This document shows positions 21,333 to 51,180 of a DNA stretch of 51,993 nucleotides, one piece after another. Both the position numbers and the translations under genes were made by a program. The notes under the pieces were generated by a model. The model had not been told where the DNA came from. It ran no database searches and was given only the letters and a program-made list of their open reading frames with translations. Origin of the DNA: a virus. Positions within the stretch are counted from its first letter, which is position 1; every line of letters starts with the position of its first letter. The stretch is taken from IMG/VR virus record IMGVR_UViG_3300004625_000001. One strand, written 5' to 3'.

Positions 21333-21482
21333 ATGGCCTGTGGACCTTGTGAAAAGCGTCGCCAGATGATCGCCGAAGCACGGAAGCAGGCCGGGGCTAA
21401 GGGCTTCCTCAAAGTGTTGCCGAAGGTCGCCAAAGACGTCGTGAAGAACCCGCCGAACATCAGGAAGAGCCGCAATGGGTGA
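21333..21482 (+). CDS. Possible 49-aa basic protein between terL and portal
   Basis: MACGPCEKRRQMIAEARKQAGAKGFLKVLPKVAKDVVKNPPNIRKSRNG; overlaps the portal start by 8 nt. Confidence 0.35.
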   Translation: MACGPCEKRRQMIAEARKQAGAKGFLKVLPKVAKDVVKNPPNIRKSRNG

Positions 21483-23310
21483 CGTTATCCAGCTTCGGGC
21501 GAATGACAGCCTGCGCTCGATGGTCGCCGGCCTCGGCGATCCCTTCCGAGACAAGATGGCTACGGCCTCGTATGGCCTGCAGTACATCGACGACTATCAG
21601 CTCGCCGCCATCTACAAGAGCAACTGGCTCGGCAAGAAGATCGTAAAAATCCCGGCCTTGGATGCTATCCGTAAGGGCAGGGACTGGCAGGCGGAGCAGG
21701 ACCAGATCGAGGCCATCGAGGCAGAGCAGAACCGGCTAGGCTTCTGGCACAAGCTGCTTGAGGTAAAGGTCAAGGCCCGGCTGTGGGGTGGCGCTGCGCT
21801 GTTCATCGGTACTGGCGAGCAGGATCTCATGCAGCCCCTGAATGTCGAACGGACCGGGAAGGGCGGAATCAAATACCTTACGGCGCTGTCGCGTCGCGAT
21901 GTCGCCGCCGGGCCGATCGATCAGAATGTATTGTCCGATTTCTACGGCAAGCCGTCATATTACGAGGTGACCGGCAACGCATCGATGATCCGCATCCACC
22001 CATCAAGGTTTGCCGTCTTCATCGGCGAGCCCCATGGAGACAACCTGCTGAACTTCGGCGTGAACGACGGTTGGGGCGACAGCATCATCGAGGCCGTTTA
22101 CTCGGCGATGAAAAATGCAGATGCGACGGCGGCGAACATTGCCAGCCTCGTCTTCGAGGCCAACGTCGACGTGTTCCGGATCCCGGATTTCATGAACGGC
22201 CTGGCCGACCCGGAATATAGGAGCCGGCTGCTTGAGCGGTTTTCGCTCGCTGCGACGGCGAAGGGTATCAACCGCGCGCTCGTCCTCGACAAGGAAGAGG
22301 AATACGAGCGTAAGACCATATCGTTCGCCACACTTCCGGAAGTCATGCAGTCGTTTCTGCAGATGGCAGCTGGTGCTGCCGATATCCCGGTGACACGGCT
22401 TCTCGGCCAGTCTCCGGCCGGCATGTCGGCGACCGGCGAATCCGACATGAACAACTATTACGATCGCGTGTCGTCTATCCAGACGCTGGAAGTGACGCCC
22501 GCGCTCTATCGCCTTGACGAGTGCCTGATCCGCTCTGCCCTCGGCAGCCGCCCCGACGAAGTCTTCTATGAGTGGTCACCGCTCAAGCAGATGACCGAGA
22601 AGGAGCAGGCTGAAATCGGCAAGTTGAACGCCGAGACGGCGAAGACGCTGGCCGATACGGGCATCTTCACCCCGGTCGAGCTGCGAACCGTCGTCACGAA
22701 CCAGCTTGTGGAATCGAGCTTCTATCCCGGTCTTGACCAGGCGGTGGCGGCAACTGATGCATCCGGCGAGTTTGACCTCGGTGGCGATGATGAGACCGAT
22801 GAACCGGAAGACCAGCAGCAGACGCGCCAGCGGGCCGCCGACGCTGCACCGCGCACGCTCTACATTCATCGTGACGTGGTGAACGCCGACGACATCAAGA
22901 AGTGGGCGAAGACTCAGGGCTTCGAGACCGTTCAGGACGATCTGCACGTCACCATCATCCACACTCGTACGCCGCTGGACTGGATCAGGGTCGGGAACGA
23001 CATCGAGTGGGCTGACAGCGGCAACACCATCAAGATCCTCGCCGGTGGCCCGCGCCTTATGGAGCAGTTCGGCGATGCGGTCGTGCTTCAGTTCGCAAGC
23101 TCGCGCCTGACCTGGCGTCATGAGGATATCAAGCGCCTCGGCGCCGACACGGATTATCCCGACTACCAGCCACACGTCACGATCTCGTGGCAGAAGCCGG
23201 AAGGAATGGACCTTTCGACGGTCGAGCCGTACCGCGGTGAGATCATCCTCGGGCCGGAAATCTTCCAAGAGGTCAATGACGACTGGAAGAGCAAGATCGT
23301 CGAGGCGTGA
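21475..23310 (+). CDS. Portal protein (DUF1073-like) fused to a C-terminal 2H-phosphoesterase domain
   Basis: Portal body is aa 1-~425. An acidic linker (GEFDLGGDDETDEPEDQQQ) follows. Aa 459-611 carry two H-V-T-I tetrads (LHVTIIH at H491, PHVTISW at H567). Confidence 0.85.
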   Translation: MGDVIQLRANDSLRSMVAGLGDPFRDKMATASYGLQYIDDYQLAAIYKSNWLGKKIVKIPALDAIRKGRDWQAEQDQIEAIEAEQNRLGFWHKLLEVKVKARLWGGAALFIGTGEQDLMQPLNVERTGKGGIKYLTALSRRDVAAGPIDQNVLSDFYGKPSYYEVTGNASMIRIHPSRFAVFIGEPHGDNLLNFGVNDGWGDSIIEAVYSAMKNADATAANIASLVFEANVDVFRIPDFMNGLADPEYRSRLLERFSLAATAKGINRALVLDKEEEYERKTISFATLPEVMQSFLQMAAGAADIPVTRLLGQSPAGMSATGESDMNNYYDRVSSIQTLEVTPALYRLDECLIRSALGSRPDEVFYEWSPLKQMTEKEQAEIGKLNAETAKTLADTGIFTPVELRTVVTNQLVESSFYPGLDQAVAATDASGEFDLGGDDETDEPEDQQQTRQRAADAAPRTLYIHRDVVNADDIKKWAKTQGFETVQDDLHVTIIHTRTPLDWIRVGNDIEWADSGNTIKILAGGPRLMEQFGDAVVLQFASSRLTWRHEDIKRLGADTDYPDYQPHVTISWQKPEGMDLSTVEPYRGEIILGPEIFQEVNDDWKSKIVEA

Positions 23311-39510: not shown

Positions 39511-40500
39511 ATGCCTTTTTACACTGACGGTGTTGTTCCCTGGAACAGCCTCGACGACAACACGCGCGCGCCTCTCGCGTCAGAACTTGAGAGCGGCTAT
39601 CCCTGCGGCCCAGCGGATCAGGAGCTGTTCAACTGGACGGCCGGCTGGCCAATCGGCAATATTTGGAACGTGTTGCTTGCCGCTGGCATCACGCCTGATA
39701 CCGATAAGCTTCTCGACCTCGCCAAGGCGATTCAGAGCGGCAAGATCAACTATGCGGCGGCAGGAGGCACGGCGAACGTGCTGACCGCTGCCCTCACACT
39801 CGCACCAACAGCATATACAGTCGGCCTGCGAGTGGTTTTGCTAATCGCTTTGGCAAACACTGGCGCAGTCACGTTGAATTTGAATGGCCTCGGGGCAAAG
39901 GCTGTCACCAAGGTCGACGGCAGCGCGCTGATGGCGAACCATTTGAGGCCTGGTCTTGTTGTTGATCTTGTATACGACGGGACCAGATTTTTGGTGATGT
40001 CGGCACCGCGCCCGGCGACACAAGCGGAAGCCGATGCTGGTGTGAGTGACGTCGGATACATCACTCCGTTGATATCAGCGAAGAAGAAAGCTTCGTACAT
40101 GTCGGCTTCCTCTGGGAGTCAGTCTATTCCCAGCGGTGTGTTCACCACCTTCACCAGCTTCGGCGCCGTTGCCACCCATTTTCAGGGCGCGAGCACCTTC
40201 GCATCCGGCCTTCTGACTATCGGGGCGGGCGATGAAGGCCTTTGGTATCTCGGTTTCTCTGCGCGGCAAAATGGACTCGGCACCGTGGGTCAGGCAACGC
40301 AGATAACTGTCAATGGTGTGGCGGTCGCCAGCGATGGCGCACAAACTTCTGGCAGCAGTGCTGTCGGCCACTCTTCACCCAGCGTGGCGGTGGTCCTCAA
40401 TGTCGGAGACATCGTCGCCTTCCAGGTCTCTCAGACCACAGGCGGCAGCGTCACCTTCAACAGTTACAATCTTTCCGCCGCCCGTATTGGCGCCTCTTAA
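39511..40500 (+). CDS. Tail fibre protein
   Basis: 329 aa; Gly/Ala/Thr-rich beta-type sequence after the baseplate genes. Confidence 0.7.
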   Translation: MPFYTDGVVPWNSLDDNTRAPLASELESGYPCGPADQELFNWTAGWPIGNIWNVLLAAGITPDTDKLLDLAKAIQSGKINYAAAGGTANVLTAALTLAPTAYTVGLRVVLLIALANTGAVTLNLNGLGAKAVTKVDGSALMANHLRPGLVVDLVYDGTRFLVMSAPRPATQAEADAGVSDVGYITPLISAKKKASYMSASSGSQSIPSGVFTTFTSFGAVATHFQGASTFASGLLTIGAGDEGLWYLGFSARQNGLGTVGQATQITVNGVAVASDGAQTSGSSAVGHSSPSVAVVLNVGDIVAFQVSQTTGGSVTFNSYNLSAARIGAS

Positions 40501-40511
40501 GGAAGACTTCC

Positions 40512-41048
40512 ATGAGTGCAAAATTCGAACTTTCGCCAGATGACGTGACGCTGATCTCCTCCACCCTTAATCTTTCAGGGGCCTCTTACGAGGATGGCTT
40601 CCTGGTGGCTGATGGCCATACCGCGACTGCCATCGAGACGATGCTTGCCGATGAAGACTGGCGGGCCGCGCAGGCCCCTGGGCAATTGAATAGACTAAAG
40701 ACTATGATAAAGCTCGAAATTGATGCCTCCGCCGAAGCGGAACGGCTCAAATACATCACTCCCGGCTCCGGCCAGGCGCTGACCTACAGCCAAAAATCAG
40801 ACGAGGCAAATCGGTATCTGATGGCGGCGTCGCCGGTCGCGGCAGATTATCCATTGCTTTCCGCCGAGGTCGGCATCACTGCATCCGACATCAGCGGGGT
40901 GGCCGCTGTTGTCAAGGCAGCGTTCACGCAATGGCAGATCATTGGAGCCCGCATAGAAGCGACCCGCCTGAAAGCTAAAGCGTCCATCGAAGAGGCTAGC
41001 ACAGAAGAGGCCGTGAGGGCCGCGGCAGCGGCAGTGGTGTGGCCCTAA
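40512..41048 (+). CDS. Tail fibre assembly/chaperone-like protein (DUF4376-like)
   Basis: Start MSAKFELS at 40512; last gene of the late structural operon. Confidence 0.5.
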   Translation: MSAKFELSPDDVTLISSTLNLSGASYEDGFLVADGHTATAIETMLADEDWRAAQAPGQLNRLKTMIKLEIDASAEAERLKYITPGSGQALTYSQKSDEANRYLMAASPVAADYPLLSAEVGITASDISGVAAVVKAAFTQWQIIGARIEATRLKAKASIEEASTEEAVRAAAAAVVWP

Positions 41049-41065
41049 GCCCTGCCGACCGGAAG

Positions 41066-41479
41066 CTACGCCCCCAGCTTTTGGCGGCCGATCAGTCTGA
41101 GCGTCAGATTGCGGCCGAACCGCAAAACTGGATAAACCACTTTCGAAACGGTCGGCGACCGAAAGATCAGGGCATTCACCCGGTTGAACCAATCGCTCTC
41201 GCTGCTTAACAGCGCCAAGCGGTTGATGCTGTCAGCGCCGAAATATGTCCTGCCATCCATTAGCAAGACCATCCCGTCATCCAATGACATGCCGCGGCTT
41301 TGGAAAGCGACGACCAGATCTGGATTCAACCTTGCGTCAATAAGTAATACCTCTCCAATCGCAGACCGGAGGCGCTGAAACTTCACGAAGTTCGAACAGA
41401 ATGGACAATCGCCGTCATAGACGATGACCGTCTTGCCCTTCCACTCGGGACGAAAACCTATATCCGTTGTGGATATCAT
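41066..41479 (-). CDS. DCC1/DUF393-family thiol-disulfide oxidoreductase
   Basis: VIVYDGDCPFCSNFV is the DCC CxxC signature. Confidence 0.8.
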   Translation of the reverse strand: MISTTDIGFRPEWKGKTVIVYDGDCPFCSNFVKFQRLRSAIGEVLLIDARLNPDLVVAFQSRGMSLDDGMVLLMDGRTYFGADSINRLALLSSESDWFNRVNALIFRSPTVSKVVYPVLRFGRNLTLRLIGRQKLGA

Positions 41480-41572
41480 GAAAAGCTACCGATCTACCTT
41501 GGCTTCGGATACCGCAGAACGTAGGTTCGCCACCGCCAGGGATCAAGCGCAAATCGTTCAAAGCCTGCACCG

Positions 41573-42502
41573 TTGACAAGAAACGGTTCGGGGAATTATA
41601 CCCGACCCGATTGTAGGGAGACGCAATTGACAACCGCAGCAGTTGATCAGGACCTCGCGCGACGGCTCTCCATTGGACTTCGTGCCTACCTTTCGTTCGT
41701 CATCGCAGTCGGTTTGGCCTTGCCCCTGCTTAGCCTCCTTCAGGACAAGGGAACGATCCACGTCACATGGTTGAGTAATACCGGACGATCGATGTTGCCT
41801 TGGGCAATTTTTGTAGCCGTAGCTTTCGTCCTCTTCCAGAAATTTGTCCGTAGATCTTGCATGTCGATAGCCGCCTGGGCGCTCGAAACGCCGGGCGACC
41901 GATATCGATGGGTCGTCGTCGGCTGCTGTCTTTTGATATTCACGAGCTACTCCTGGCAGCTGCATATCGGCATCGCGCACCGCGGAGTGCCGGGGTGGGT
42001 GTACGCTGGCATGCCAGACGTCATCCAACCCGAGGAGCCCGCGAAGCTTTCCCTGCCGCCCGATATCGACCCCGCCGTTTTCAAGGCCGCGCTGCAGCCA
42101 TGGGTGATGCCGTATATCCATCGGAGCGGCTATGCGTCGAGCGAGGTTCTGTTCCTCCATTTCAAGGACGGAACGATGCGACCAGCCAATTATGAACTCG
42201 CCATGGTCAGCTGGCCGAAATCCACTTTTGGACTGGCGAATGGGCAAATGACCCACGGCCCCGAATTCTTGGCGATCGTCAAACACAACTTCGCAAACCG
42301 CCGCGCCGGCGGCCCGTTCTTGATGCCTGGCGCCATTTCGTATCCCAGCCATCTAAACTACCAGCGCATCGACTATCGTGGGTACCCGGCAGCGGAGGAG
42401 ATCGTGGGAGCTTCATTATGGACACTCACAGTCCGGATAGACGATCATGCAGGGGCGGTAAATATCGTCGGGGCGACAAAGGTTGCACAGGTGAACGGAT
42501 GA
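41573..42502 (+). CDS. Multi-pass membrane protein with ~170-aa extracytoplasmic C-terminal domain
   Basis: Three hydrophobic helices, then a soluble domain. The start is non-ATG (TTG at 41573, or TTG near 41627 after GGGAG). ATGA-coupled to the HTTM gene. Confidence 0.65.
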   Translation: MTRNGSGNYTRPDCRETQLTTAAVDQDLARRLSIGLRAYLSFVIAVGLALPLLSLLQDKGTIHVTWLSNTGRSMLPWAIFVAVAFVLFQKFVRRSCMSIAAWALETPGDRYRWVVVGCCLLIFTSYSWQLHIGIAHRGVPGWVYAGMPDVIQPEEPAKLSLPPDIDPAVFKAALQPWVMPYIHRSGYASSEVLFLHFKDGTMRPANYELAMVSWPKSTFGLANGQMTHGPEFLAIVKHNFANRRAGGPFLMPGAISYPSHLNYQRIDYRGYPAAEEIVGASLWTLTVRIDDHAGAVNIVGATKVAQVNG

Positions 42503-43482
42503 TCGCTAAGCTCCTCGGCCCGGTCGATTTCTATGGCCGACCTCGTCCTGTTCTCGCCTTGCACTGCTACATCATCCAGGCAGGAGCATTCGCACTGGCA
42601 CTGTACCTCTTCCTGTCATGGGATTTTTCTGGGCTTGCCTTGATGCCGGCAGATGCGTTCGTTCGCGACGCGCGAGGTTTGCTCTTTACCTATTGGAAGA
42701 CGCCTGGGCTTTATTGGACCACCTTCCAGTTCATCTACGAGTATATCCCTCGCCCCTCCGTCGGCGCACTCCATGCCATTCAGATGGCGACGATCGTCGC
42801 CTTGTTTTGCGGCCTGTTTGGAATCTTTCCCCGCGCGGCGGCTTGGATGGCGCTGCTATTGGGATCACACCTTATAGGATGGTTCTTGCTAGGCAGCGAC
42901 ACGATGGATGCATCGACGACGGTGTTGCTGTTCATGCTGTTCCTCGTCGCGCTGTTTCCTCGCGATGCCTACTATAAGATTGGGAAGCGCGCCCGGCCCC
43001 TTGCTCTCAGCAATGCGTTCCACGGCCCGGTCTTCATTCTGCTGTTTTTCATGGACGCCTATTACTTCTATTCTGGTCTGAACAAGATTATCGACATCGG
43101 CCCAGGTTGGTTCTTGGATGCCCGCTTGGACCTCTTCTCCATCGCCGCGGTTGAGCAGTCTCTGTTCGTATCAACCTGGTCGACAAACCTTTGGTTCAGC
43201 AATATTCTGTCGGTCCAGGTCTTTGCGGGCGTCGTTGCGTTCCTGGTCTTTGCCCTTGAGCTAATAGCCCCGATCGCTCTGTTCTTCCCGCGATTGAGCC
43301 CGGCATTTCTGATGTTTTTCGCGAGCATGCATCTCAGCATCTATCTGTCGCACAGCTATGGCTATTGGACGAACACAGCAGCCGATTTCATGCTCCTGCC
43401 ATACACGGCGATCGTTGCCTGGATAGGTCGAGCATGGCATAGGCGTAATGGAATTAGTATCGCGGGACAGCCTGCCGAATAG
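42499..43482 (+). CDS. HTTM-domain (vitamin-K-dependent gamma-carboxylase-like / SdpB-like) membrane protein
   Basis: 327 aa, polytopic. The layout is typical of the HTTM family (N-terminal ...LALHCYIIQAG..., FLVALFPRDAYY, YFYSGLNKI, HLSIYL). Confidence 0.7.
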   Translation: MIAKLLGPVDFYGRPRPVLALHCYIIQAGAFALALYLFLSWDFSGLALMPADAFVRDARGLLFTYWKTPGLYWTTFQFIYEYIPRPSVGALHAIQMATIVALFCGLFGIFPRAAAWMALLLGSHLIGWFLLGSDTMDASTTVLLFMLFLVALFPRDAYYKIGKRARPLALSNAFHGPVFILLFFMDAYYFYSGLNKIIDIGPGWFLDARLDLFSIAAVEQSLFVSTWSTNLWFSNILSVQVFAGVVAFLVFALELIAPIALFFPRLSPAFLMFFASMHLSIYLSHSYGYWTNTAADFMLLPYTAIVAWIGRAWHRRNGISIAGQPAE

Positions 43483-43657
43483 ACTTCGGTGAAACCACCA
43501 AGATGTGTACGTGCCGAGTATGCCCGCTCATTCGAGGCGGCGTTGATGGAGGCCGGATAGCCGCGTCTGTAGCTAAACCCGCTCCTGTGGCTCCTCTGTC
43601 CCTGCCACCAAAACGGACAAGACTACCGTCGAGATCTTCCAGGCGTCACCACCGTGG

Positions 43658-43771: not shown

Positions 43772-43887
43772 AACCGAAGATCCTTATGATCACCCGCGAG
43801 AACATGCTCGCGTCATTTGATTCCTGCAAGCCGCTGAATCCACCACGAAGCTTGCGCGAAACTTTCCCAAAATCGGAGACATCAACA

Positions 43888-44760
43888 ATGCCAGTCAATG
43901 ACACGGCGAACGAATTCTCGCGCTCTCTCGCCAAGGTGCTCGTCCACGAAGGCGGCTATAGCAACCATCCGGCGGATCCGGGCGGCGCCACGATGAAGGG
44001 CGTCACACAGCGCGTCTTCACCGAATGGCTGGCCGCCGATGGAAAGCCTTCGCGTGACGTCCGGACCATCACGGGTGCGGAAGTCGCGGCGATCTACCGC
44101 AAGCGCTACTGGGACGTCGCCAAACTCGACAAGCTGGCCCCGGGTGTCTCCTACGTCGTCTTCGACGGCAACGTGAACTCGGGCGTCTCCCAATCCATCA
44201 AGTGGCTCCAGCGCGCGTTGCAGGGGCTTGGGCTCTACCAGGGAGCGATCGACGGCATCATCGGGCAGGGGACGATCCTGGCGGCGGCTGGCGTCAACGA
44301 CAACGACATGTTGATCGCACGCATCATCGAGCGCCGAGAAGCTTTCCTCCGAGCTCTGAAGACCTTCAAGACCTTCGGGAAGGGCTGGATCAGCCGCATC
44401 AGAGACGTGAAGGCAGTGGGGCAGGCTTGGGCTACCGGATCAGTCGGCCCTGAAATCAGCTACAAACCGGGCGGTGAGGCCAAAGCATTCCTGTCCAGCG
44501 CGAAGGCAGCGCCAGCTCTTGCCGTAGCAGATGCTTCGACTGGCAGCGGTGTCGGCTCCGGCGGCATCGCTGTGACGCTCCAGCAGGTGCAGGATCAGCT
44601 TTCGCCCCTCAGTTACTCCAGCGAGCTTATCGGCAAGGTGGTTGCCGGCTTGATCATCGTGAGCGCTGTTTTGACGATCGGCGGCCTTGCCTATCGCTGG
44701 TACGCGAAGCGCAAAAAGGACCGGCTCAAAGATGCCCTCGATATCCCGGTGGCGTCATGA
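43888..44760 (+). CDS. GH108 N-acetylmuramidase endolysin with PG-binding domain and C-terminal membrane anchor
   Basis: VHEGGYSNHPADPGGATMKGVT (GH108) and LQGLGLYQGAIDGIIG (PG_binding_3-like). C-terminal TM LIGKVVAGLIIVSAVLTIGGLAY plus basic tail. ATG at 43888 has a GGAG RBS. Confidence 0.85.
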   Translation: MPVNDTANEFSRSLAKVLVHEGGYSNHPADPGGATMKGVTQRVFTEWLAADGKPSRDVRTITGAEVAAIYRKRYWDVAKLDKLAPGVSYVVFDGNVNSGVSQSIKWLQRALQGLGLYQGAIDGIIGQGTILAAAGVNDNDMLIARIIERREAFLRALKTFKTFGKGWISRIRDVKAVGQAWATGSVGPEISYKPGGEAKAFLSSAKAAPALAVADASTGSGVGSGGIAVTLQQVQDQLSPLSYSSELIGKVVAGLIIVSAVLTIGGLAYRWYAKRKKDRLKDALDIPVAS

Positions 44761-50130: not shown

Positions 50131-51180
50131 ATGACCAAGTCTCCAAAGTCAAAGCCGCTCCTGCAATCCGACAGGCCGCTTCGCTCGCGAGCGCGCAAGC
50201 CGCGAGATCCCGCGCAGCCAAATCTTCCCCTCGATCCCATGCCGGCGCGCATCGAGCCGTGTCTCGCTCTCCTGAAGCAGAAACCGCCTAAAGGGCAGCA
50301 ATGGGCCTTCGAGGTGAAGTGGGACGGCTACCGGATTGCGGTTCATATCGAGCCCAAGGGCGTTCGTATTCTGACGCGAGGCGGACACGACTGGACGCAC
50401 CGCTTCCCGGCGATTGCTGCTGAGGCGGCGCAGCTCGGGGCAGCAACGGCAATCATCGACGGTGAAGCCGTGGTGCTGGATGAGCGAGGCCGGTCGGATT
50501 TCAGCCAGTTGCAGCAGTCGCTCGGGGGCCGCGGCGGTAGGCTGAACTCCGGTGCATCCGTTCTGATGGCCTTCGACCTCCTGTATTTCGATGGTCACGA
50601 TCTCACGCAGACAGAGCTTTCAACCCGCCGGCATCTACTTGAAGGGCTGATCGCGCCAGGTAGGGAAAGTGCCATCCGGATATCGGAGGAGGTGGAGGCG
50701 GACGGCGAGCAGTTGCTGCGCCTAGCCTGCGAGCACGGGCTCGAAGGGATCATCGCCAAGGATCGCAACAGCGCCTATCGCTCTGGCCGGCTCGGCGACT
50801 GGCTTAAGGTCAAATGCATCCAAAGCGATAGCTTCATGATAGTCGGCTGGGAGCAATCGAGTGTCGCGCGAGGCCATGTTGGTTCTTTGCTCCTGGCTGC
50901 CTACAAAGGCAATGATCTGGTTTATGTCGGATCAGTTGGAACCGGCATCAAAGACAGCGAGGCATGGAAGCTTCGCGGCATGATGGAAAAGCTGACGGTC
51001 AAGAGGCCTCCCGTCGCTTATGATGGTTCCCGAAAGAACCTGACATGGCTCCAGCCAACGCTGATAGCGGAGGTCGAATATCGCGCATGGACCCATGACG
51101 GCAAGCTTCGCCATGCGTCTTACAAAGGCCTGCGGGAAAAGCAGGACAATGCCGAAGTCTTTGTAATCCAAAATAACTAA
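50131..51180 (+). CDS. ATP-dependent DNA ligase (LigD ligase-domain type)
   Basis: Motif I EVKWDGYR (KxDG), motif III-like LMAFDLLYFDG, motif IV GLEGIIAK and motif V DWLKVK. An OB domain follows. Confidence 0.88.
   Translation: MTKSPKSKPLLQSDRPLRSRARKPRDPAQPNLPLDPMPARIEPCLALLKQKPPKGQQWAFEVKWDGYRIAVHIEPKGVRILTRGGHDWTHRFPAIAAEAAQLGAATAIIDGEAVVLDERGRSDFSQLQQSLGGRGGRLNSGASVLMAFDLLYFDGHDLTQTELSTRRHLLEGLIAPGRESAIRISEEVEADGEQLLRLACEHGLEGIIAKDRNSAYRSGRLGDWLKVKCIQSDSFMIVGWEQSSVARGHVGSLLLAAYKGNDLVYVGSVGTGIKDSEAWKLRGMMEKLTVKRPPVAYDGSRKNLTWLQPTLIAEVEYRAWTHDGKLRHASYKGLREKQDNAEVFVIQNN

Follow-up and report, generated by a model that had tools for sequence, protein, structure and literature searches.

What would a relative of gamma-glutamyl carboxylase, an enzyme dependent on vitamin K, do between the tail-fiber and lysis genes of a prophage? 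The question is raised by the IMG/VR virus record IMGVR_UViG_3300004625_000001, a 51,993-nucleotide (nt) stretch of DNA hereafter called the window. Three genes lie at positions 41066-43482: on the minus strand a gene for a thiol-disulfide oxidoreductase of the DCC type, and, divergently transcribed from it, a pair of plus-strand genes coding for membrane proteins of 291 and 327 amino acids (aa), named P291 and P327. A sequence-only reading of the window, made without database searches, had placed the three open reading frames (ORFs) at these coordinates, where they are indeed found, and had interpreted them as a membrane-embedded modification or maturation pair, made up of a protein of the HTTM family and a redox partner, with a co-translated substrate or partner. 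The answer favored here, held at a probability of about 0.5, is that the three genes form a prophage accessory cassette for a carboxylase-less membrane redox enzyme resembling the human carboxylase GGCX, whose site of action would be the periplasmic face of the envelope and whose purpose may be lysogenic conversion.

P327 and the HTTM superfamily

P327 (42499..43482, plus strand) is a protein with eight transmembrane (TM) segments. Its assignment to HTTM, the family which includes the catalytic membrane domain of GGCX, is not obvious from direct scans: no Pfam match was found at E≤0.01 or at E≤10, with either the 327-aa or a 354-aa reading of the gene, and NCBIfam, PHROGs and PADLOC gave nothing meaningful. 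The PADLOC scan, as fruitless for P291 as for P327, also led to dismissal of a catalogued defense system.

Homologues of P327 are rare, 11 clusters among 5.8 billion. A profile built on 12 close sequences (A1) and searched exhaustively against 1.84 billion representatives matches 227 proteins, and reaches at ~1e-8 two of them, P0085 and P0086, which score 34.7 and 38.5 bits on the Pfam HTTM model (gathering cut-off 27.7). Among the 88 A1 relatives scanned for Pfam content 21 match HTTM (best 4.6e-15), eight LMF1, two DoxX and two DoxD. When A1 was compared by hhalign with seven HTTM-positive relatives, three of them above the Pfam gathering score, the profiles matched over 259 columns with 99.6% probability (E=2e-23). 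The AlphaFold2 (AF2) model of P327 has a predicted local distance difference test (pLDDT) score of 62 and a predicted template modeling (pTM) score of 0.64. Searched by Foldseek against 350,542 PDB chains, it finds as the best 11 matches human GGCX chains only, all solved by cryo-electron microscopy (probability 0.69-1.0, TMq up to 0.49, E-values 0.12-0.7). The A1 profile alone matches no PDB sequence; the broadened profile A3 matches human GGCX at E=4e-10.

The sequence-only reading had proposed a search with HTTM profiles, and would have given up the assignment if P327 failed to hit them. The direct scan did give no hit, and the HTTM label was kept because iterated profile, profile-profile and fold comparisons agree, and rescue the assignment. 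On these grounds P327 is best described as a divergent member of the GGCX/HTTM superfamily.

Residues and topology of P327 compared to human GGCX

In the HMMER alignment of A3 to human GGCX, whose residues are numbered by adding 31 to the chain numbering, K196, W204, E254, H278 and Y289 of P327 correspond to K218, W223, D263, H287 and F299, respectively. K196 is the sole invariant column among 88 diverse relatives of P327, and E254 is conserved in at least 90% of them. In GGCX, K218 and D263 are the residues for deprotonation and epoxidation of vitamin K hydroquinone (KH2); the D263E mutant keeps partial activity, and a Glu occupies this position in the epoxidase-like GGCX homologues of giant viruses (PMC13486548).

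Other parts of the human enzyme have no equivalent. Residues N159 and H160, by which Glu of the substrate and CO2 are held (PMC12647623), lie within an insert lacking a profile column, where P327 features the sequence DTMDAST (residues 134-140), and N290 aligns to Ile. Neither the luminal region of GGCX nor the 374-418 motif, essential for gamma-carboxylation (PMC13486548), has a counterpart in P327, which ends at residue 327, past the HTTM core. Because N159/H160, the luminal region and the 374-418 motif are missing, P327 reads as a carboxylase-less, epoxidase-type HTTM protein. According to hydropathy and the positive-inside rule, both its termini are cytoplasmic, and K196 lies at the periplasmic end of TM5.

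P291, the companion of P327

The gene upstream of P327 is translationally coupled to it by an ATGA overlap, as the sequence-only reading had noticed, the TGA of P291 (42500-42502) overlapping the ATG of P327 (42499-42501). That reading had also described the product as a 3-TM protein with an extracytoplasmic domain of ~170 aa, and the description agrees with the topology predicted by hydropathy and the positive-inside rule: three TM helices are followed by a beta-rich C-terminal domain of 177 aa, predicted to be periplasmic. The gene is on the plus strand as reported; the length of 309 aa has been revised. The ORF called mechanically spans 41573-42502 (309 aa) and starts at a TTG. P291 homologues are 285-300 aa long, and a GGGAG Shine-Dalgarno sequence (41616-41620) precedes an in-frame TTG at 41627. 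Therefore, the gene most likely spans 41627-42502, and codes for 291 aa.

P291 homologues, 13 clusters among 5.8 billion, reside on contigs shared with P327 homologues. The intact loci of the close clade come from Bradyrhizobium, Hyphomicrobium, Neorhizobium, one contig of a soil metagenome and contigs of Tara Oceans. In all of them gene order is kept, the two neighbors either abutting or overlapping by 4 nt, and the linkage holds down to 28%/39% identity. An overlapping upstream gene is similarly found in the nearest P327 outgroup (E=1e-33 to 1e-52), and in the three readable loci its product is homologous to P291 (hmmsearch E=3.9e-48, 3.3e-41 and 2.5e-37). The coupled upstream gene is thus a conserved companion, co-occurring with the P327 homologue at all intact loci. 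A second locus in Bradyrhizobium semiaridum WSM 1704 (L011, 6001-6813) contains a frameshifted, N-terminally truncated P327 homologue, with no P291 homologue beside it. The same genome has an intact pair, and the L011 copy is a second one in decay. At locus L018 (2-748, plus strand) the gene overlapping the start of P0114, a protein described below, codes for a single-TM, small-domain protein which has no Pfam match and no similarity to P291 by hmmsearch. The TM-anchored partners encoded upstream of HTTM-DCC proteins seem to vary in kind.

The conserved core of P291 is made up by the last TM helix, the motif G-x-P-G-W-x-Y just past it, and the beta-rich domain of ~170 aa, in which His, Asn, Pro, Trp and Tyr residues are invariant; two further motifs, LHF-x-x-G-x-x-x-P-x-N and YP-x-H...Y...YP, are conserved. 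The core has neither a Glu cluster nor a Cys pair (alignments A2 and A6), and the outgroup lacks the lone Cys which members of the close clade conserve. The AF2 model of P291 has a pLDDT of 76. No relatives were found in Pfam, among PDB sequences (A6 profile), or by Foldseek in PDB or BFVD, and DUF5819 matched neither P291 nor 16 members of the family in Pfam scans at E≤10. Homology to the luminal domain of GGCX or to DUF5819, both considered, finds no support in these results. The co-translated protein had been proposed as either substrate or partner. The latter stands, given the strict co-occurrence and a core made up by TM anchor and ectodomain; the former does not, as Glu-rich or Cys-rich target motifs are missing. 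By these sequence features P291 behaves as an obligate partner subunit, not as a substrate.

The DCC protein and its link to HTTM

The minus-strand gene (41066..41479) codes for a 137-aa protein with the motif YDGDCPFC noticed in the sequence-only reading (CPFC, C25/C28). The protein scores 42.6 bits on the Pfam DCC1-like family PF04134 (cut-off 27.8, E=1.6e-10), and covers positions 1-108 of the 113 in the profile. Neither a signal peptide nor a TM or other hydrophobic segment is present, and the protein is predicted to be cytoplasmic.

The association of HTTM-like and DCC proteins is best seen in fusions. P0166, an HTTM-like-DCC fusion of 560 aa, ends in a DCC domain with which the DCC protein of the window shares 44% identity (E=2e-34). 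Most P327 outgroup proteins are 400-450 aa long and carry a C-terminal PF04134 domain, and P0114 combines DCC with an HTTM domain passing the Pfam threshold. Since the closest outgroup has DCC fused at the HTTM-like C-terminus, the tie between the HTTM-like protein and a CxxC oxidoreductase, anticipated from the window alone, is corroborated, and a functional HTTM-DCC link may be considered well supported by sequence comparison. The C-terminus of P327 is predicted to be cytoplasmic, and therefore fused DCC domains and the free DCC protein would act on the cytoplasmic face of the membrane.

The synteny of the three genes is limited. The DCC gene adjoins the pair in three places only, the window and two other Rhizobium prophages (L012 and L017), which carry one and the same cassette. 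No DCC gene was found near the pair in eight other distinct loci (L001/L008, L002/L003/L010, L004-L007, L009, L013, L019, L020 and L022), in the DNA up to 8 kb on either side, less on short contigs. The proposal that the trio might be syntenic in other genomes therefore fails outside the three near-identical cassettes. Variation was also observed among outgroup proteins with a C-terminal extension of DCC length: many (P0030, P0035, P0041, P0044 and others) have lost the CxxC motif (alignment A4), which is kept in P0036, P0043, P0051 and P0052. P0134, a protein of 1217 aa, is a triple fusion of an HTTM-like region, a DCC1-like domain (residues 332-441) and a PMT_2 glycosyltransferase of the GT-C type (769-920). 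This fusion hints at a link to lipid-linked glycosylation.

Mobility of the cassette

The cassette lies between tail-fiber and lysis genes, as originally described. Upstream are found a 329-aa tail-fiber gene (39511..40500, plus strand), matching PHROG 4900 (tail protein, E=2.9e-12) and, by tblastn, annotated phage tail-fiber proteins, and a gene for a 178-aa protein (40512..41048, plus strand) matching PHROG 32459 (unknown function, E=7.2e-12), a putative tail-fiber assembly or accessory protein judging by its position. Portal, tape measure and baseplate genes are located further upstream within the window. The next gene downstream of P327 codes for a GH108 endolysin, identified by a Pfam domain match (43786-44760, plus strand).

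A block of 3.8 kb (39720-43489) is 92% identical at the DNA level to L012 7218-10991 and L017 6096-9866. It runs from about codon 70 of the tail-fiber gene to the end of this gene, and includes the 178-aa gene, whose product is 91% identical and in the same position in L012 and L017, DCC, P291 and P327. The left breakpoint is inside the tail-fiber gene, the right one at 43489, 7 nt past the P327 stop codon. Outside the block only a ligase gene is also common to the window and L017 (74% DNA identity). The L012 and L017 prophages feature Mu-type baseplates (Gp44-48), and lysozyme and downstream genes differing from those of the window, where the baseplate genes are of the E217-gp41/DUF2612 type and the lysin is GH108. 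Because baseplate types differ around one 92% identical block, the cassette is seen to move as a unit, together with the receptor-binding end of the tail fiber, between unrelated prophages. Its location at a late-region junction and its exchange independently of the phage backbone are those of an accessory cassette.

The ratios of nonsynonymous to synonymous substitution rates (dN/dS), computed against L012 and L017, are 0.07-0.10 for P327, 0.25-0.31 for P291, 0.33-0.36 for DCC and 0.09-0.12 for the 178-aa gene. On these ratios the genes of the module are functional and under purifying selection.

The intergenic region between the divergent genes (41480..41626), read directly from the sequence, includes a TTGACA box (41573-41578) separated by an 18-nt spacer from TATACC (41597-41602), in addition to the Shine-Dalgarno sequence of P291. 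The two boxes are promoter-like and may serve the pair; L012 and L017 have TTGACA, TATACC, GGGAG and the start TTG at 41627 unchanged. The TTG which opens the mechanical 309-aa ORF corresponds to the first three bases of the perfect TTGACA box.

The P327 family was found at only four loci in a scan of 185,579 species, each represented by one genome, and at only four in JGI metagenomes. Searches of sequenced phages, IMG/VR viral contigs and plasmids with the genes or the cassette gave no match. The Neorhizobium locus is an independent one, and there the pair adjoins another phage receptor-binding protein; a further locus is next to a large serine recombinase.

Neighbors of the pair outside phages

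Outside phages, genes for surface polysaccharides are frequent neighbors, which speaks for a target in the envelope. At one non-phage locus the pair is flanked by an Acyl_transf_3 gene. In a marine locus it is close to a cluster encoding methyltransferase, AMP-binding, acyl carrier, formyltransferase and family 2 glycosyltransferase (GT2) proteins. Loci of other relatives feature Asn_synthase and GT2, GT2 and Wzy_C, or WbqC, DegT and methyltransferases. One pair is a stand-alone two-gene operon among housekeeping genes. In a Hyphomicrobium metagenome-assembled genome (L002, 4450-5319) the pair is preceded, at a distance of 1.8 kb, by a gene for rhodanese on the other strand. This is a single case, reminiscent of mycobacterial DoxX-SseA, a thiol oxidoreductase complex.

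No additional gene is conserved with the pair across loci. The substrate is therefore probably a general cell component.

Proposed function and alternatives

In the explanation which we favor, P327 would be the catalytic core of HTTM type, binding a membrane (prenyl)quinol. Lys196 and Glu254, at the periplasmic ends of TM5 and TM6, would act on the quinol as K218 and D263 of GGCX, which deprotonate and oxygenate vitamin K hydroquinone. P291, made in a fixed ratio by virtue of the ATGA overlap, would be the obligate second subunit of a split GGCX-like complex, its last TM helix packing against P327, its 177-aa periplasmic domain covering the active site and selecting the substrate, a role which may be likened to that of the luminal clamp domains in GGCX and to that proposed for DUF5819 in bacterial HTTM-DCC systems. 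The CPFC dithiol of the soluble DCC protein would work at the cytoplasmic face, where relatives carry the C-terminal DCC fusion, and either return the spent cofactor to its reduced form or pass electrons on, a part similar to that of VKOR but played from the opposite side of the membrane. Since the cassette encodes no substrate, the target is taken to be a general envelope component exposed to the periplasm, likeliest a surface polysaccharide, lipopolysaccharide (LPS) or a lipid-linked intermediate. The pay-off for the lysogen would be lysogenic conversion, by altered surface or receptor properties linked to the receptor of the tail fiber.

The interpretation given in the sequence-only reading has thus been retained for the HTTM superfamily, the DCC link and the companion gene, and abandoned for the synteny of the trio and the substrate role. 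Among the functions it listed, envelope remodeling or superinfection exclusion is the most plausible. Modification of a virion protein is unlikely by topology, since the prediction places both the conserved Lys and the ectodomain of the partner in the periplasm; the tail fiber itself was rejected as a target, its assembly into virions taking place in the cytoplasm.

Several observations weigh against the favored explanation. P327 fails the curated Pfam HTTM model (PF05090), its AF2 model is of moderate quality (pLDDT 62), and the Foldseek matches have E-values of 0.1-1 and TM scores ≤0.49. With N159/H160 unaligned and N290 replaced by Ile, the chemistry may differ from the generation of a base driven by epoxidation. 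The P291 domain resembles neither the GGCX luminal domain nor DUF5819 in sequence or fold, and only its position and architecture speak for a putative role as a clamp. No DCC gene is found near the pair at any alphaproteobacterial locus other than those of Rhizobium; because DCC is absent at sister loci, and the CxxC motif is lost in several fused domains, the thiol partner is dispensable or replaceable. Rhizobium makes ubiquinone and probably no menaquinone, and a cofactor of vitamin K type is not obviously at hand. The generic sigma-70 scan called no promoter for the P291-P327 pair. The apparent association with polysaccharide genes concerns ~5 of roughly 10 independent contexts, and other contexts are housekeeping. 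Finally, this clade is known from sequences and models alone.

The alternatives were weighed on the same evidence. The module might serve general thiol and quinone redox homeostasis of the membrane in a DoxX/LMF1-like manner, DCC coupling cytoplasmic thiols to the quinone pool for protection of the lysogen from oxidative or thiol stress, with no specific envelope target. That distant relatives of P327 match DoxX, DoxD and LMF1 besides HTTM, that one source labels a P327 homologue 'YphA (DoxX/SURF4 family)', that the DCC fusion is cytoplasmic, and that rhodanese lies 1.8 kb from the Hyphomicrobium pair all fit this scheme. It leaves unexplained, however, the presence of an obligate, well-conserved subunit with a 170-aa periplasmic domain, the loss of CxxC in many fused relatives, the missing DCC beside most alphaproteobacterial pairs, and the repeated siting in polysaccharide clusters and beside tail fibers, and we regard it as rather unlikely. 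Still less probable is a genuine carboxylase of vitamin K type, similar to GGCX or MloH, fixing CO2 onto a Glu/Asp residue or a metabolite. P327 keeps the catalytic Lys/acid pair and the aromatic residues of the pocket, and, as MloH of bacteria demonstrates, non-Gla substrates can be carboxylated by HTTM enzymes (bioRxiv 10.64898/2026.08.19.745780; PMC12647623). Yet GGCX N159/H160 are neither aligned nor conserved, the 374-418 motif has no counterpart, P291 is unlike the luminal region, and neither a biosynthetic cluster nor a Gla (gamma-carboxyglutamate)-type substrate is found nearby, no Gla-like ORF being visible in the cassette. True Glu carboxylation is, on these sequence grounds, unlikely.

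Two further alternatives place the substrate next to the enzyme. The cassette might resemble SdpAB, the pair processing a secreted toxin or bacteriocin that kills non-lysogens, and DCC handling its disulfide. Bacillus SdpB, needed for production of the SDP toxin, is reportedly a membrane protein of HTTM type, and its small partner is SdpA. Competition factors are common among the products of prophage morons, and two maturation-like genes next to a thiol oxidoreductase would suit such a function. Against it, no NCBIfam model fits the three proteins at E≤10, where the only match, SbmA (E=0.046, 13 bits against a cut-off of 492), is noise, although the presence of Sdp models in the release was not checked. 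The shared cassette ends 7 nt past P327 with no further ORF, no small secreted-peptide gene is conserved beside the pair at other loci, and the pair also exists as a stand-alone operon between housekeeping genes. Toxin maturation on the model of SdpABC, raised in the sequence-only reading, is thus left without support, and seems quite improbable. Slightly more improbable is that P291 is the substrate, carboxylated or oxidized in its periplasmic domain by P327 and DCC. Tight translational coupling, strict co-occurrence, and the location of the P291 domain on the same side of the membrane as the conserved Lys would be expected of such a substrate; but the conserved Gly, Pro, Trp, His, Asn and Tyr residues are typical of a fold or active-site scaffold, Glu clusters and Cys pairs are missing, the lone Cys of the close clade is not kept in the outgroup, and a substrate is not usually coupled to its enzyme in stoichiometric amounts. 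DUF5819, the analogous partner, has moreover been modeled as a structural subunit touching the quinone pocket (bioRxiv 10.64898/2026.08.19.745780).

A bolder version of the favored envelope-modifying redox enzyme, unlikely though not to the degree of a genuine carboxylase, is that P327 and P291 form a phage-borne, split quinol epoxidase of GGCX type, which uses ubiquinone in an alphaproteobacterium, is recharged from the cytoplasm by the DCC dithiol, and modifies a surface glycan or lipid-linked intermediate, altering the receptor of its own tail fiber. If true, this would be the first vitamin K cycle-like enzyme borne by a bacteriophage, in which a strong base generated by oxygenation serves for the covalent modification of a receptor, and lysogenic conversion or superinfection exclusion of a chemically new class.

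Comparison to known systems

P327 and human GGCX share a polytopic membrane fold and profile homology (E=4e-10, with a broad family profile). The equivalents of K218, D263 (as Glu), W223, H287 and F299 are found in P327, with the conserved Lys on the non-cytoplasmic side. In contrast, GGCX is 758 aa long, P327 only 327 aa, and lacks the luminal clamp, the carboxylase region and the equivalents of N159/H160. Where GGCX has its luminal domain, the separate, TM-anchored P291 is found; VKOR is replaced as thiol partner by a cytoplasmic DCC protein, and the host probably has no naphthoquinones.

Closer in layout are bacterial systems in which DUF5819 and an HTTM-DCC fusion have been modeled as a complex resembling whole GGCX, the DUF5819 domain sitting at the position of the clamp (bioRxiv 10.64898/2026.08.19.745780). 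Both feature an upstream coupled, TM-anchored protein with an extracytoplasmic domain, an HTTM-type core and a cytoplasmic DCC, and the nearest P327 outgroup has exactly such a layout with a P291-like partner. P291, however, is not DUF5819 (Pfam, E=10) and has three TMs, P327 is missed by Pfam HTTM, DCC is split off as a divergent gene, and the module resides in a prophage.

Giant viruses encode modules made up by VKOR and an epoxidase which is truncated and resembles gamma-carboxylase, with or without a desaturase, for which a role in remodeling host membranes or lipids has been proposed (PMC13486548). These, as the cassette of the window, are virus-encoded, combine a thiol oxidoreductase with a truncated GGCX homologue which has K218 and a Glu at D263 and lacks the carboxylase motif, and encode no Gla substrate. 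They differ because found in eukaryotic viruses, in an endoplasmic reticulum context, with VKOR in place of DCC, and joined to, or next to, a desaturase of sterols or fatty acids. The cassette of the window lacks a desaturase, and has instead a dedicated subunit with a periplasmic domain.

The SdpA/SdpB proteins of Bacillus subtilis are a two-gene membrane maturation pair, the polytopic member of which is reportedly HTTM-like. No SdpC-like precursor gene is found here, the architecture of the partner is different, and the DCC association is specific to the phage module. As to genomic setting, the cassette recalls the serotype-conversion cassettes of prophages (O-antigen acetyl- or glucosyl-transferases), being an accessory unit at the tail-fiber/lysis junction, encoding integral membrane proteins and predicted to work at the periplasmic face; the receptor-binding end of the fiber is transferred along with it, and homologues elsewhere are found in O-antigen-like clusters. 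The known conversion enzymes, Acyl_transf_3 and GtrABC included, are on the other hand not homologous to its proteins, and the present system is known from genes alone.

HTTM-DCC-partner modules and virus-encoded modules of truncated carboxylase and thiol reductase have already been described, very recently. New are an HTTM subfamily and an obligate partner family invisible to current Pfam, NCBIfam and PHROG models, the split three-gene arrangement, the residence in a temperate phage as a tail-fiber-linked cassette, and the recurrent association with polysaccharide clusters. Phages, like giant viruses, carry carboxylase-less GGCX homologues with a thiol redox helper. Bacterial HTTM proteins are a large family of which hardly any member has been characterized, and for the DCC family a biochemical role in bacteria is yet to be established. 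The module is compact and mobile, consists of three separate genes, and has in Rhizobium leguminosarum/johnstonii a tractable host, in which phage adsorption and surface chemistry are testable phenotypes. Should modification of the envelope prove true, a new enzyme class would be added to those of lysogenic conversion, and a handle gained on HTTM-DCC systems generally.

Other features of the window

In the GH108 endolysin the peptidoglycan-binding domains are followed by a terminal hydrophobic stretch, LIGKVVAGLIIVSAVLTIGGLAY, and KRKK. This tail looks like a C-terminal membrane anchor, unusual among endolysins. The portal protein (21475-23310, plus strand, 611 aa) matches PF06381 (E=1e-102) and carries at its C-terminus an Anti-CBASS Acb1 domain (PF23474, residues 460-606, E=4.7e-37), a fusion of an anti-defense nuclease to a portal. 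An ATP-dependent DNA ligase (PF01068 and PF04679) is encoded near the right end of the prophage (50131-51180, plus strand).

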